From: Octopus vulgaris
Lineage: Eukaryota
Direction: 5' to 3'
Length of the DNA stretch: 64,000 nt
Assembly (NCBI GenBank): GCA_951406725.2
Contig: OX597815.1
Span: forward strand, 146,940,001 to 147,004,000
Positions within the stretch are counted from its first letter, which is position 1, and each line of letters begins with the position of its first letter. The notes below the pieces were generated by a model, which saw only the letters and a program-made list of their open reading frames with translations, did not search any database and had not been told where the DNA came from. This document shows positions 8,847 to 63,777 of this stretch, in pieces. A program made the translations under genes and the position numbers.

Positions 8847-9164
8847 CGGTGTTTTTGTAGTAGTAGTAGCAATAGTAGTTTTTGTTGTTGTTTTTGTAGT
8901 GATGGTGGTGGTGTGGGCTACAGAGGTGATATTTTTGCGATTAGTATCACTATTTGTAGTAGTAGTAGTAGAAGTTGTAGTTTTTGTTGTTGTTTTTGTA
9001 GTGGTGGTGGTGGTGGTGTGGGCTACAGAGGTGATATTTTTGCGATTAGTATCACTATTTGTAGTAGTAGTAGTAGTAATAGTAGTAGTAGTTGTAGTAG
9101 TAGTAGAAGTTTTTTTGCAGTTGCTGTTTAACGCCGATCCTGCAGCGCTATTACCAAAGGCTTT
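8457..9164 (-). other. Stop-free 236-codon Thr-rich, mucin-like reading frame (no early start codon, possible exon)
   Basis: Checked by hand: no stop between 9164 and 8457; contains an in-frame 105-bp duplication (NSDTNRKNITSVAH twice) and NxT sequons. Confidence 0.3.
8873..9082. repeat. 105-bp tandem duplication
   Basis: gtgggctacagaggtgatatttttgcgattagtatcactatttgtag at 8913 and 9018. Confidence 0.9.
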
Positions 9165-13682: not shown

Positions 13683-13872
13683 TTATGATGACGGTACGGC
13701 GCTCCACACATGACACTCTTCCTGTGTTTTCGATTTAAAGTCAGTTTTGGGATCGAACGATATATCCTCATCCTTATTTATGATGACGGTACGGCGCTCC
13801 ACACATGACACTCTTCCTGTGTTTTCGATTTAAAGTCAGTTTAGGGATCGAACGATATATCCTCATCCTTAT
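13683..13872. repeat. 95-bp tandem duplication, one substitution
   Basis: Units 13683-13777 and 13778-13872 (ttttggg vs tttaggg). Confidence 0.95.
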
Positions 13873-14341
13873 TTACAAAAAAAACAAAAAACAAAAAAGA
13901 AATACTTCTAGTTTTTCATTGAACTGATGCTAATGATGGTAGCATTAGTGTTTATTGTTTTTGTTGTTGTTGGTGGTGGTGGTCACGGTGATGGTGGTGT
14001 TGAGTGTAGTAGTGGTTGTCGTGTCGTGGATGGCACTCGTAATAGCAGTGTCAAGTAGGGAGGGAGTCCTTAGGGTGCTGTACGAGATCAAGTTTGTCGT
14101 AGTGGTGGTGGTGGTGGTGGTGGTGGTTGTACTGCTTCTTGGATTTTTGTGCGTGGACAGAGATGCGCTCGTGCGCTCTCACCCCCCTTACATACACACA
14201 AGCACTTTCCCTCGCTCTCTCAGACGGACACAACTCCTACACATCTATGTATCAGGATATATGTACGTGTGTGTGTGTGTGCGTGCGTGTGTGTGCGTGT
14301 GTGTGTATGTATAGATGTATGTATATGTATGTATGTGTATG

Positions 14342-15204: not shown

Positions 15205-18200
15205 CATTTTGGTAGGATGCCTACTATTTCGGGTGAGGGAGTTAATCGATTACATCGTCTCCAATGTTGAACTGGTACTTCTTTTATCGACCCCGAAAGG
15301 AAGAAAGTCAAAATCGACCCGGCAACGTTTGAACTTAGAACGTAAAGACGGACGAAATTATTCTAAGCGATTTGTCCGGTCAGGTAACGATTCTGCCAAC
15401 TCACCACCTTAATAGCAGCATTGGTAAAATCGGTGAGCTGGCAGAATCGTTAGCACGCCGGGCAAAATGCTTAGTGGCATTTCGTCCATCCTTACGTTCT
15501 GACTTCAAATCTCGCGGACGCCGACATTGTTTTTCCTCCTTTCGGGGCCGATAAAATAAGTGCCAGTTAACACTGGGGTTGATGTAATCGACTTATCCCA
15601 TTCCCCCAAATTTCTGGCCTTGTGCCTATAGTAGAAAGGGTTATTATCATTATGGTAGATTTGTTAGTGTTCGGAAACAAAAAAAAGTGCCTTACAATAT
15701 TTGTTCCGGTTTCTTTACGTTCTGAGTCCAAATTCCGCCGGGGTCGACTTTGCTTTTTATCCTTTCGGGGTCGATAAATTAAGTACCAGTTGTGTACTGA
15801 GGTCGATCTGATCGAATGATACCCTCCTCCAAAATTTCGCGCCTTGTGTTAAGGGTAGAAAAGAATATTTGTTCCGGCTCTTTATATCTAGGGTTCAAAT
15901 CAGGTCGTGTTCAATTTTGCCTCTTAGCCTTTCAAGGTCGATAAAATAAATTTGTTGACAGATATCGGGGCCGATGGCACCGACAAACGCTTAGCTCTTC
16001 ACTTTAAGCCATCCGGTAGCGGGAGGGAACTGGTTGATAAAATAGAATACCAGCCAAGTACAGATCAACCCACTCCCCTCACAATTATTTGTTTTGTGCG
16101 AGATTTAAAGACAAATATTATTTGGCAGAATCGTTAGCATATCGGACAAAATGCTTAGCAGCATTTCGTTCGTCCTTACTTTCTGAGTTCAAATTCTGTC
16201 GAGGTCGACTTTGCCTTTCATCATTTTGGGTTGTCCGTAAAATAATTACCAGTTGAACACTTGGCTTGCTGTAATCGACTAGCCCGCTTCCTCGAAGTTG
16301 TTGCACTTGTGCCAAAATATGAAACTATAATGTAGGCAGTAAAGAAATAGGTATTTCGTTTGTCTTTACGTTCCGAGTTCAAATTCCGCCGAGTTCGACT
16401 TTGCCTTTCATCCTATCGGGATCGATAAATTAAGTATCAGCTGCGTACTGGATCGAGCTAATCGACTGCCTCCTGCCCTCCCCTAAAATTTCGGGTCTTA
16501 TGTGTAGAGTAGAAAAGAATATAAATTTTTGTAAGGCAGCGAACTGGCAAAACCGTTAACATGCCGCCCAAAATGCTTGGCAGCATTTCTTCCGACTTTG
16601 CATTCGGTGTTCAAATTCTGCCTTTCATCCTTTCGGGGTCGATAAAAACAACTACAAGTTGAACAATGGACTCGATGTAATCTACTATTCCCCTCTATAT
16701 ATATTGCTTGCCTCGTGCCAGAATTTGAAATCAATATCTATTTTATTTATTCCTCTTCTTTATAGTCAGAGTATAAATCTCGCCGTGATCAACTTTGCCT
16801 TTCATTCTTTCAGTGTCGATGAAATAACTACCATTAAAGGAATAGGGTCAATGTAATCAACTGGCCCTTTAACCTAAAATGGTGTTGCCCTTTTTCCTTT
16901 TTTAGGTGTTGGCCTTGCACCAAAATTTGAAGCAAGGCAGTGAAAGGCGGCGAACTGGCAGAATCGTCAGCACATAGGACAACAATGCTTAGCTGCATTT
17001 CATCCGTCGTTATGTTCTGTGTTCAAATACGACCGATTTTGACTTGGCCTTTTATTCTTTTATGGTCTGTAAAATCGAATAGTGTGGTCGCGAAGGCGGC
17101 GAGCTGGCAGAATCGTTAGCACGCCGGGCGAAATGCGTAGCCGTAATTCGTCTGCCGTTACATTCTGAGTTCAAATTCCGCCGAGGTCGACTTTGCCTTT
17201 CATCCTTTCGGCGTCGATAACTTAAGTATCAGTTGGGTACTGCGGTCGATCTAATCGACTGCCCCTCCCCACCTCCCCAAAAATTTCGAGCTTTGTGCCT
17301 AAAGTAGAAACGAATACTTTGGTCGCAGTAATCGACTCACCATACCCACGAAATTGCTGACTTGGTATCAAATTTTGAAACCATTACTATTTAAGCGGCA
17401 AGCAAGCAGAATCGTTAACGAGTCGGACAAAACGCATAGTGGTATTTCTTCCGGTTCCTTATGTGCTAAGTTCAAATCCCGCTGAGGTGAACTTTGCTTC
17501 CCATCCATTCAGGTTTAATAATATAAAGTTAATTACTGGGGTTCGATTTAATCTCCTTACTCCTCCCTTAATAGCTGTTCGCTTTGTACCGAAGCTTGAA
17601 AGAAATAGAAGGTGGCGATCTCGGTGGTTCACCGGACAAAATGCTTAGGAGATTTCTTCTGTCTATACGTTCTTAATTCAAATGGCGCCGAGGTTTGACA
17701 TTGACTTTCATCCTGTAGGTTTGATAAAATAAATACCAGTCGATGTAATCGGCTTCTTCCTCCGCTTAAAATCGCCGGTCTAGTACCAAAATTGCAAAGA
17801 AATATATTATTGCTATTATTATTATTAAGTCAGGTAGCGGAGAGCGGTGGGCTGGCAGAAATGTTAGCACGCCGGGCGAAATGCGTAGCCGTATTTCGTC
17901 TGCCGTTACGTTCTGAGTTCAAATTCCGCCGAGGTCGACTTTGCCTTTCATCCTTTCGGGGTCGATTAAATAAGGATCAGGTACGCACTGCAGTCGATAT
18001 AATCGATCTAATCTCTTTGTCTGTCCTTGTTTGTCCTCTCTGTGTTTAGCCCCTTGTGGCTAGTAAAGAAATATGTATTTCGTCTGTCTTTATGTTCTGA
18101 GTTCAAATTCCGCCGAGGACGACTTTGCCTTTCATCCTTTCGGGGTCGATTAAACAAATGCCAGTTACGCACTGAGGTCGATATAATCGACTTAATCCGT

Positions 18201-18635
18201 TTGTCTGTCCTTGTTCGTCCCCTCTATGTTTTGCCCCTTGTGGGTAGTAAAGAAATAGAAATAAGTATTTCGTCTGCCGCTACGTTCTGAGTTCAAATTC
18301 CGCCCATGTCGACATTGTCTTTCATCCTTTCGGGAGTTGATTAAATAAGTACCAGTTACGTACTGAAGTCGATGTAATCTGTTTAATCCCCTCCCTCAAA
18401 CTGATTTTGAAGCAAAAATTTGAAATCATAAGGCGGCGAGCTGGTAGAATCGTTAGCCCGCTGGACGAAATGTTTAGCGGTATTTCGGTCGTCACTCCGT
18501 TCTGAGTTCAAATTCTGCAGAGGTCGACTTTCATCCTTTCGCGGTCGATAAAATAAGTACCAGTTGAAGACTGTGTAATACATTCATCCCTTCCCCTAAA
18601 ATTGCTGCCCTTATAGCAAAATTTGAAACCATTAT
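15205..18635 (+). mobile_element. Cluster of roughly 15-18 tRNA-derived SINE family A copies and fragments
   Basis: Repeated head ggcggcgagcTGGCAGAATCGttag (A box) and gaGTTCAAATtcc (B box), core gcctttcatcctttcggggtcgataaa. The first copy (15205-15410) is on the minus strand, the rest on plus. Confidence 0.9.
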
Positions 18636-29031: not shown

Positions 29032-29146
29032 AGAACACCGGGGGACGTTTAAGAAGAACACCGGGGGACGTTTAAGAAGAACACCGGGGGACGTTTAAGA
29101 AGAACACCGGGGGACGTTTAAGAAGAACACCGGGGGACGTTTAAGA
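29032..29146 (+). repeat. Five perfect copies of a 23-bp unit at the 5' end of the R4 element
   Basis: agaacaccgggggacgtttaaga at 29032, 29055, 29078, 29101 and 29124. Confidence 0.97.
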
Positions 29147-61750: not shown

Positions 61751-62024
61751 CTTAATGCTGGGACTTGTACTCAGGAGAGATAGCAGTGTGTTAAGTTTGC
61801 TATTGGCGTATGGTTATGAGTAATTGTTTTTGTGTCAAGATATATACAATAGGATCATGAGTGGTTGTGTGGTAAGAAGTTTAATGTGGCGGTCCCATAG
61901 AGGACGATGTTACTGTTGTTTTTAGCCCCAGGTAGACATATATCCAGCTGGCTACGACACGTTGTCTGTGTCCAATTAGTATTTGCGAGAGGATGTGATC
62001 GCTCCCATCTCTAGCCTTACGCGG

Positions 62025-62073
62025 CACACTCTGACCCGGGTTTCTGGGTAGTTACCCGTCTTCGGTGTGTGAT
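62025..62073 (-). ncRNA. Type I hammerhead ribozyme, copy 1
   Basis: atCACACA CcGAAGA C GGGT aact ACCC A GAA ACCCGGGT C aGaGTG; U4 changed to C and two stem I mismatches. Confidence 0.7.
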
Positions 62074-62512
62074 AATGACCAGCTAGAGATGAATACAGCG
62101 ACAAACTGCCACTCATCTCGAAAATGGAGAAATAAGCTATATTAAATCTCAGAGCGAGAGATAAATAGTAACAGTATGGGATCCTAAAATATATTTGCAA
62201 ACTAAATGTGGCGGTCCCATAGAGGACGATATTACTGTTGTTTTTAGCCCCAGGAAGACAGCTCCTCCAGTTGGCTAACGACACACTGTGTCCGATTCGT
62301 ATTAGTATTTACAATAGTAACATAGTTCTCTATGGAACTGCCACATTTAGTTCGCAAATATATTTTACGATTCTGTACCTTTACTATTGACCTCTAGCTC
62401 AAAGATTTAATATAGCTTATTTCTCCCTTTTGGAGATCAGCGACAGTTTGTCGCTGGAAAAAGCATATAAAATTCTGCGAGTGGAATGAGTTTCCAACAC
62501 TAGCTGGTTATT

Positions 62513-62561
62513 ATCAGAAACTGAAGACAAGCAACTACCCAGAAACCTGGGTCTGTGTGTA
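62513..62561 (+). ncRNA. Type I hammerhead ribozyme, copy 2
   Basis: atCAgAaA CTGAAGA C aagc aact ACCC A GAA ACCtGGGT C TGTGTG; core intact, stems I and II decayed. Confidence 0.7.
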
Positions 62562-62702
62562 TCACGTAAGGCTAGAGATGGGAGGAATGACTTCCCCTCG
62601 CAAATAATAATCGGACACAGACAGTGTGTTGTTAGTCAGTTGGAGGAGATGTCTTCCTGGGGCTAAAAGCAACAGTAAAATCGTCCTCCATGGGGCCACC
62701 AC

Positions 62703-62746
<44 letters not shown>

Positions 62747-63777
62747 CAAATATATCTTATGATTCCATACTGTTACCGTTTACCTCTCGCTCAGAGATTT
62801 AATATAGTACATATATTTATGTTTATCTTTGTCCCCCACCATCGTTTGACATCCGACGTTGGTGTGTTTACGTCCCTGTAACTTAGCGGTTCGGCAAAAG
62901 GATGCGATGGCATAAGTACAAGGCTTACAAAGAATATGTCCTGGGGTCTATTTGTTCGATTAGAGGCGGTGCTCCAGCATGGCGGCGTTGAAATTATTGG
63001 AACAAATAAAAGGAAAGAATATAGGAATACTAGACAACATTTAAGTAAATGACTACTCAATACTTTTCGTATCGTAAATGTTTATTGTTTATATCTTAAA
63101 AGGCAAATGTTGACAGTGATTTCGAAGTTTCGGCGAGTTTGACATAGTGTATGTTTGTGAGTGAAAGTGTTTGTGTGCTGCATGTGCTTTTGTGTACATT
63201 ATATGAATGTGCTGGGGCGTGTTTGCGTGTGGTGTGTGCTTGCGTGTGCGTGTGCGAGAGAAAGACAGGGAAATAAAGAGAAAGACAGAGAGAGAGAGGA
63301 GAAAGAGAGATAGATTTTTAGTGGCTGAAGTGTTCCTGTAAGTTGTCTATAACGGTATGCATATATACTGCTCCGAGCAATTGAGAAAACTGTATTTTGA
63401 TATATTTCTTTACTTCGTTACGTTCCTTTAAATGCTGGGCTGAAAATGCTACTGGAAGTAATTTACTTTTCATATCAATTGCTACTTTGATTATTGATTA
63501 AAGAAGGATAAAATGCAAATTCCGTTCCGTGAAAATTCTAAATGAGCATATGAAGTGTATGCATTGTAAGGCATGTTATATAGTACAATATTGATTCTGG
63601 CACTCCTCATTGATTTCTTAACAATGCACATGATCTCAAATGTTTTGCAGAAAGTGAACAGGCGATTGTAAAGGACCAATATTTCACTCCCCTTCATTTT
63701 ATCGTTCCCAGGAGAGAGAAAAGCTAAGGCAATATCGGTGCACTTGAACTAAGTAAAAGTACGTTACAAAAATAACA

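Follow-up and report, generated by a model that had tools for sequence, protein, structure and literature searches.

What kind of element left, near the end of the window (the whole 64,000-nucleotide stretch of DNA analyzed here), two inverted runs of a non-coding repeat that each carry a hammerhead-like motif, and how was it inserted there? The initial annotation, made from the letters of this stretch, had proposed a retrozyme mobilized by a Penelope-like element (PLE) and had named one alternative, a coding Penelope element whose terminal repeat the unit would be. We conclude with good confidence that the locus is an old two-armed insertion of a 358-bp non-coding hammerhead retroelement, likely inserted by a PLE, and that its own ribozymes are probably inactive. 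The argument rests on the layout of the locus, on the dispersed family to which it belongs, on the conservation of the hammerhead motif, and on an insertion footprint shared with PLEs. Comparisons with published systems refer throughout to the available sections of the papers cited.

Layout of the window locus

The locus consists of two arms of one repeat unit joined 5'-to-5' at 62304-62310, where the variable 5' truncation points of both arms meet; the two arms, their orientation, and the repeat spacings of 322 and 358 bp that had been claimed were all found in the sequence. The left arm (61883-62303, minus strand) amounts to 1.2-1.3 units with ~35 bp deleted. It begins with the 3' third of a unit (62181-62303, minus strand) and continues into the deleted unit (61883-62179, minus strand), i.e., positions 232-358 and then 2-334 in a unit numbering in which position 358 is the commonest 3' end in the family. 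The deletion corresponds to 36 gap columns against the right unit, and the arm stops ~22 nt before the family's first fixed end. The right arm (62311-62807, plus strand) comprises the last 61 bp of a unit (62311-62371, positions 298-358), unit positions 1-336 (62372-62707), and an end part (62745-62807) made of the remainder of the unit end and a Penelope-type tail of ~45 nt, all on the plus strand. Between the last two parts lies a (TA)n tract (62706-62744), which interrupts the arm at unit position ~336, where the left arm ends. The tail repeats unit positions 1-44 up to 62807; the first fixed end lies near 62763 and the second at 62807. Divergence from the majority sequence of subfamily A (see below) is 8.8% for the left arm and 9.8% for 62311-62707 of the right arm. 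In 5 of 86 arms, at loci including L004, L006, and L046, a third and less common end was observed around unit position 334-337; both window arms break there (61883 and 62707), the right one resuming after (TA)n.

Each arm carries one hammerhead, and the two are damaged differently, as had been noticed at the outset. The left one (62027-62071, minus strand, predicted cut after 62033) bears U4C and two stem I mismatches adjoining the cut site. In the right one (62515-62559, plus strand, predicted cut after 62553), the core letters are intact; stem I and helix II have two mismatches apiece, and helix III has one change. U4C reportedly lowers activity considerably in vitro, yet is viable in a viroid (PMC3088659). 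Both motifs, damaged as they are, are probably inactive. What remains at the window locus is one decayed insertion, both of whose ribozymes are broken, and not an active tandem source; none of the Tandem Repeats Finder matches listed for the window (150 of 160 rows) lies at the locus. Three body hairpins stand at the coordinates initially given for them (62422-62436, 62438-62456, and 62642-62657, all on the plus strand). Comparison of subfamilies A and C shows covariation in the second, and the third is kept in subfamilies A, B, and C, with a change from G-U to G-C.

A dispersed family with five subfamilies

Searching the genome (2.8 Gb in 227 contigs) with the unit gave 2,428 first-look candidates, dispersed over many contigs; the 40 for which a score was obtained match the window copy at 79-88%. 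Further searches brought the collection to 142 loci after 17 duplicates had been dropped by hand; L112 and L113, a possible segmental duplicate, were both kept. From these searches, 150 near-full copies fall into five subfamilies, whose median distances from their own majorities are 9.5% in A (n=46, including both window arms), 10.7% in B (36 copies), 6.1% in C (41 copies), 4.3% in D (8 copies), and 4.0% in E (19 copies). Subfamily A stands 22-27% apart from C, D, and E. Judged by its sequence, the window copy sits in an old subfamily. A tree of 50 of the 150 copies is ladder-like, with A nested in B and with D and E arising among C-type copies; two wobble-type copies lie between its halves, and its root is the midpoint only.

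The unit measures 352-358 bp, has a GC content of 45-46%, and contains only short frames, the longest ATG frame reaching 27 aa in the A majority and 28-92 aa in those of B, C, and E; there is no shared long frame. Two hammerheads occur within a single arm at L002, L014, and L028. An array was found at L194 (L194:1900-5047 = G000:C2:14086400-14089550), where nine 352-bp units of subfamily E follow one another: eight are 0-6 bases from the reference unit (98-100% alike), whereas the first lacks its 5' part and has 95% identity. With neither an inverted arm nor a tail, this array could be a source locus or a local amplification. It is the only long array, and none of more than 1.73 units was found in subfamilies A-D. 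A sister family, F, has a 355-bp unit that aligns to A at ~60% over its whole length; its loci are L226:695-905 (minus strand) and L228-L256, with arms of up to 2.6 units.

Contigs from four runs presumed to be RNA, a run type that we guessed, match the family, mostly at less than 95% on the window. An E-type unit is matched by 109, 296, and 88 contigs of three presumed-RNA runs, including 25, 67, and 15 at 99% or more. No presumed-RNA contig falls on the adjoining flank of this unit, which is covered by a fourth run of unknown kind. The 352 back-joint is equally present in the run of unknown kind, and contigs cannot reveal strand, ends, or circles; we therefore place no weight on these matches.

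Conservation of the hammerhead motif

The consensus hammerhead that had been pieced together from the two window copies proved to be the majority of 40 genomic copies. Where a tetraloop had been drawn for stem II, helix II is better read as a C.A pair, 3 bp, and a U....A hexaloop, because the middle of the loop varies (UAACUA, UUACUA, UCAAUA) and its ends stay. Stem I continues past an internal loop into another, distal helix of 5 bp. In the genome, an exact core pattern of 33 letters is matched 27 times and a looser pattern 482 times, against 0 in both reversed controls, and the motif is therefore not a product of chance. Conservation of the core, which had been set as a check on the genome-wide consensus, was found: CUGANGA / GAAA / UH is intact in 89 of the 124 copies that span it, and the majority core is intact in A-D; in E, U4C is fixed (CCGAUGA core). 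Core and stems survive together in 11 of 48 copies of subfamily A, 14 of 33 of C, and 24 of 43 of B, the B copies being motif-selected; the majority of old copies have thus decayed.

Covariation was measured on 59 copies picked by whole-unit similarity and not by motif. Helix cells are paired in 90.4% of cases versus 13-55% in slid controls, and 40 cells hold double changes versus 22.6 in shuffles; two of the five covariation measures (pairs with a double change, and pair types) did not beat the shuffles, and the double changes represent few events inherited by many copies. The closing pair of stem I is A-U in 28 of these copies, G-C in 17, G-U in 6, and unpaired in 8; by subfamily it is A-U (A), G-U (B), and G-C (C-E), and subfamily D has one further compensated pair. 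The inner pair of helix III is C-G in 22 copies, U-A in 18, U-G in 7, and unpaired in 12. Helix III has the form A-C-NNNN-G-U, in which NNNN is palindromic and stays so through CCGG, UCGA, and UGCA. When its middle letters were left free, 71 of the 100 matches listed of the 482 were perfect palindromes of three kinds (UCGA 39, UGCA 24, CCGG 8), 12 were the wobble form UCGG, self-complementary with G.U, and 17 were others; this tally was counted by hand, and 9 of the 100 belong to one array.

The C.A pair flagged at the base of stem II turned out to be a real trait. The G10.1-C11.1 pair expected there is absent, and C.A occupies its place in six of six families (A-F). Because family F, only 60% identical, has C.A too, we regard it as a trait of the lineage and not as decay. 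Family F has other stems I and II with their pairing kept and a shorter palindrome, and retains the C after the core and the A before GAAA. A coding PLE of the same genome has U.U at this base, a known tolerated variant (PMC7229834, PMC3088659); C.A was not found there in the available excerpts of the hammerhead literature.

With Rfam, no hammerhead match appeared in the window stretch at E up to 10, nor in nine family loci, intact copies included, at E up to 0.5, and the only Rfam matches were microsatellite-driven miRNA below the gathering score. This silence, like the weak folding of isolated motifs (z 0.2 to -2.0, single-motif folds being uninformative), would suit a common dispersed repeat of SINE-like or MITE-like kind in which a hammerhead-like string arose by chance. 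However, the core is kept and the stems are compensated across six families up to 40% apart, and the inverted arms, being variable and joined 5'-to-5', do not have the form of terminal inverted repeats; we hold such an origin to be hardly credible. That the family conserves a type I hammerhead motif is well supported, and it is at this level, with the core kept and the stems covarying, that the proposal of a retrozyme-type family holds. The pattern of changes indicates that this hammerhead is under selection, and self-cleavage is predicted.

Predicted folding of the unit RNA

For a two-unit RNA, the predicted minimum-energy fold is the double hammerhead in A and E. The predicted cost of the active fold in A, C, and E is 2.8-4.1 kcal/mol as a dimer and 6.8-9.4 kcal/mol as a monomer, and the active fold is predicted to be cheaper as a dimer in four of four families, only slightly so in B. 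In the B dimer it is not favored (14.1 kcal/mol, predicted), and in C the predicted minimum-energy dimer is not the active fold. The circular fold of the whole unit has z values of -6.4, -5.4, and -8.1 versus shuffles, the antisense strand being somewhat weaker. Over the whole unit, A and C differ by 8 compensatory pairs versus 2.1 expected (P 0.0004) and by 18 pair breaks versus 29 expected (P 0.0008), under a null that ignores the clustering of changes. Stem I is predicted to close the entire unit body, which is how a monomer set free by cleavage, or a circle, should fold.

The insertion footprint

The footprint was read on 141 loci, the L194 array being set aside; these loci were picked by similarity to queries extending over the junction or tail, so that long arms and ends at site 2 are overrepresented in the counts that follow. 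Fifty-five loci are two-armed and joined 5'-to-5', 86 are one-armed, and none is joined 3'-to-3'. Site 1 (position 358) accounts for 69 of the 196 arm ends and site 2, ~46 nt beyond it, for 75, with 52 elsewhere; when the first 55 loci (86 arms) were counted more strictly, the figures were 47, 21, and 18, respectively. When both ends of a two-arm locus could be assigned (27 loci), there was one end of each site in 25 (P 3e-6), site 1 twice in the other 2, and site 2 twice in none; in 28 more two-arm loci an end is unassigned. DNA with at least 8 of 10 A+T adjoins 109 of the 144 fixed ends. Copies mostly span 0.3-1.7 units, and 70 of the 196 arms exceed one unit, with a maximum of 1.73. Site 1 falls within a small hairpin, in its loop, and the outer pair of this hairpin covaries. 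The two sites lie 176 and ~222 nt downstream of the predicted ribozyme cut, and the template was therefore not a linear monomer produced by cutting and primed from its terminus.

The same build recurs in family F, where 10 of 29 loci are two-armed and the ends cluster at two sites ~50 nt apart, and in a coding element with RT and GIY-YIG of the same genome, which has two arms identical over 766 bp, a ~28-nt tail on one of them, (AT)n flanks, and a hammerhead of its own ~145 nt from its end. Altogether, the family displays fixed 3' ends, variable 5' truncation, an inverted 5'-joined arm, a one-sided tail, and an AT-rich target. Partial tandems, an inverted 5'-truncated copy, and a tail are the signature of PLEs (Craig et al. 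2021, 10.1101/2021.04.23.441226), and in the in vitro work of Frangieh 2024 (PMC11167929), reverse transcription by a PLE began at two positions within the RNA, one at each limit of the tail, and both strands of AT-rich DNA were extended. This footprint and one chimeric copy, described below, support the Penelope-like mobilization first suggested.

We propose a model in which (i) head-to-tail units would be transcribed; (ii) neighboring hammerheads would, as their predicted fold suggests, join through helix III, which is palindromic, and cleave behind GUC, giving unit-length RNA; (iii) the released unit RNA would be ligated into a circle; (iv) a PLE protein would nick AT-rich DNA and start reverse transcription at the two internal sites; (v) priming from both target ends would produce two 5'-truncated arms back to back; and (vi) arms of more than one unit would arise where the enzyme, on a circular template or an uncut multimer, ran across the cut site. 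The copies would then decay neutrally, newer subfamilies replacing older ones. Cleavage and circles have been shown for coral, mussel, and axolotl retrozymes, for which PLE mobilization was proposed (PMC7229834).

A second reading departs from this model only at the cutting and circle step: the same non-autonomous parasite of a PLE would be copied from an uncut linear multimer, no circle would form, and the hammerhead would serve another step, such as RNA turnover or 5' end formation. Any template that continues across the cut site would suffice for arms of more than one unit, and a source-like array of nine units exists in subfamily E. The anole PLE uses unprocessed RNA in vitro, where hammerhead mutants are unimpaired in insertion and uncut RNA is the main template (PMC11167929). 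The failure of 8 of 9 dimers of Xenopus retrozymes to cleave in vitro (10.64898/2026.07.22.740005) also counts against the model. Nevertheless, hammerhead pairing and the helix III palindrome have been kept through several independent compensatory changes, so that cutting appears to matter for propagation, and the closure of the whole body by stem I is what a released monomer or circle would show. We therefore consider copying from an uncut multimer a serious but less likely alternative and retain the model with cleavage and circularization.

PLE neighborhood and a chimeric copy

The footprint is identical to that of coding PLEs, and the unit might accordingly be the pseudo-LTR (pLTR) of a coding Penelope-like element whose 5'-truncated insertions would be the copies observed; Xenopus retrozymes are indeed homologous to PLE pLTRs (10.64898/2026.07.22.740005). 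This is close to the alternative named in the initial annotation, and we searched ~60 PLE loci for such a terminal repeat and found none. The 3' regions of 30 GIY-YIG loci showed no unit homology. Seven longer PLE loci had no linked unit, with one unlinked neighbor 590 bp away. Nor was unit homology found in 27 stretches of the PLE family involved at L148 (see below), one of which has a distant family F copy lying beyond an unrelated insertion. These searches covered a small part of 6,136 GIY-YIG candidates, which leaves some room for the pseudo-LTR. Against it, arms that pass the 5' boundary of the unit enter another unit and not shared coding DNA, the flanks of the loci have no common non-unit sequence, and PLE protein matches occur in the flanks of only 4 of 142 loci, three of them separated from the unit. 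We judge this origin improbable. Descent of the unit from an extinct pLTR is possible. The unit is not an autonomous PLE: no RT and GIY-YIG ORF was found linked upstream at the loci covered.

At L148:884-1736 (G000:C10:61411356-61412208), a 412-bp internal piece of a PLE RT is fused to a unit arm. The order is (TA)n, 412 bp of RT-coding DNA, an arm of subfamily C that measures 1.24 units and stops at site 2, and (TA)n; the RT piece is joined in sense and directly to the 5' end of the arm, and no PLE sequence was found beyond the second (TA)n. The RT piece has 26 mismatches in 412 bases (~6%) versus the majority of its PLE family, and the arm is 93.2-93.5% identical to C, i.e., 6.5-6.8% diverged; the two parts are thus equally old. 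This PLE family has 1,593 first-look candidates, and its median distance from the majority, taken over 20 loci, is 4.8%. At the switch point, both templates have the same five letters, and the junction has two letters of neither. Because the RT piece is internal and lacks the PLE 3' end, a template switch is the simplest explanation, and this single case (n=1) likely records a switch from retrozyme RNA to PLE RNA; the alternative would be an insertion into an older PLE fragment with loss of the fragment's 3' side. The protein of this PLE family shares 63% identity with that of an element of 781 aa in which a cysteine-rich linker precedes GIY-YIG, and by the criteria of Craig et al. as available this points to a candidate partner of the Neptune or Nematis type.

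Beyond the interpretation of the window locus, we tentatively put forward, at a little under even chances, a bolder reading in which the family would be a long-lived lineage of circular ribozyme RNA, with at least six successive families and a C.A dimer hammerhead, copied by a PLE from two fixed sites, and in which L148 would be the fossil of a jump onto the enzyme's own mRNA that names the partner PLE. If so, the partnership between retrozyme and PLE would become directly testable in vitro.

Relation to known retrozymes and PLEs

By the features that can be tested, the family is an animal non-LTR retrozyme, with cleavage and circles predicted: it has a non-coding unit within 150-450 bp, a GC content below 50%, no LTR architecture, a self-paired predicted circle and, at family level, head-to-tail repeats with a hammerhead per unit. 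It resembles the metazoan non-LTR retrozymes of Cervera and de la Pena 2020 (PMC7229834) in their 350-360-bp non-coding unit of ~45% GC, their type I hammerhead with a 6-bp helix I and a short palindromic helix III, and their highly paired predicted circle. Mussel retrozymes are alike in size (350-390 bp), and axolotl HHR_Amex2 also has a mismatch at the base of helix II, U.U there and C.A here. Whereas those retrozymes form long tandem arrays, the copies here are mostly one- or two-armed insertions of 0.3-1.7 units; they also differ in having two fixed internal ends and in being known from sequence alone.

The retrozymes of Li, Clavereau, and Pollet 2026 (10.64898/2026.07.22.740005) are alike in their co-occurrence with PLEs, their many monomer-size copies, and the PLE mobilization proposed for them. 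The evidence there is co-distribution and pLTR homology in vertebrates, whereas here it is a footprint and one chimera; their retrozymes have a homologous pLTR, and none was found for the present unit. By their rule of two consecutive complete hammerheads, the window locus would not be classed as active. Canonical EN+ PLEs (10.1101/2021.04.23.441226, PMC11167929, PMC4209133) share partial tandems, an inverted 5'-truncated copy, a tail at one end, AT-rich targets, a hammerhead upstream of the 3' end, and two internal starts. Unlike them, the unit has no ORF, its tail is ~46 nt versus 30-40 nt, and its hammerhead is of the canonical type versus the minimal type (PMC4209133).

Our search found no paper describing cephalopod retrozymes in the literature, the supplement of PMC7229834 and Repbase/Dfam not being covered, and the available main texts of PMC7229834 and PMC7761336 contain no cephalopod terms. 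A squid genome paper lists 235 Rfam hammerhead matches without analysis. The kind of element is known and the window copy is a relic, probably dead; what is added is the subfamily series and the chimera. The family provides a natural series of compensated changes in which a dimer-forming palindrome and an unusual C.A pair are kept under selection. In the prior literature available, the link between retrozymes and PLEs was argued from co-occurrence and homology; the genomic footprints tie animal retrozymes to the two-site internal priming that a PLE enzyme shows in vitro, and one chimeric insertion points to a specific partner PLE family.

Other elements and repeats

Two further associations of the unit with PLEs were rejected. 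The unit copies at L093 and L167 were taken to be insertions independent of the young PLE found there, (AT)n or unique DNA lying between them, and the hammerhead repeat at L226 is not the terminal repeat of a PLE; it is the non-coding 355-bp family F. Directly after the family F tail, L226:100-690 (minus strand) is a decayed coding-like stretch that by eye resembles what we take to be the C-terminal part of a PLE-type RT. The PLE of L093:2321-5483 and L167:1-1310 is very young, its copies being 99.7% alike, and has a frame with RT and GIY-YIG, two arms, a ~28-nt tail, and its own hammerhead with a CCGAAGA core, U.U at the base of helix II, and a palindromic helix III. Another young PLE, at L088-L091, has two ORFs: the first frame, of 330-480 aa, belongs to no clear Pfam family, and the second, of 781 aa, encodes an RT, a cysteine linker, and GIY-YIG and is open in many copies. 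A descriptor search gave no clear hammerhead in its terminal repeat. Elsewhere, the window is rich in microsatellites and contains tandem duplications at 17891-18379, 1448-1721, 8857-9086, 13683-13875, and 29032-29146, with periods of 184, 124, 105, and 95 and a perfect 5 x 23 repeat.
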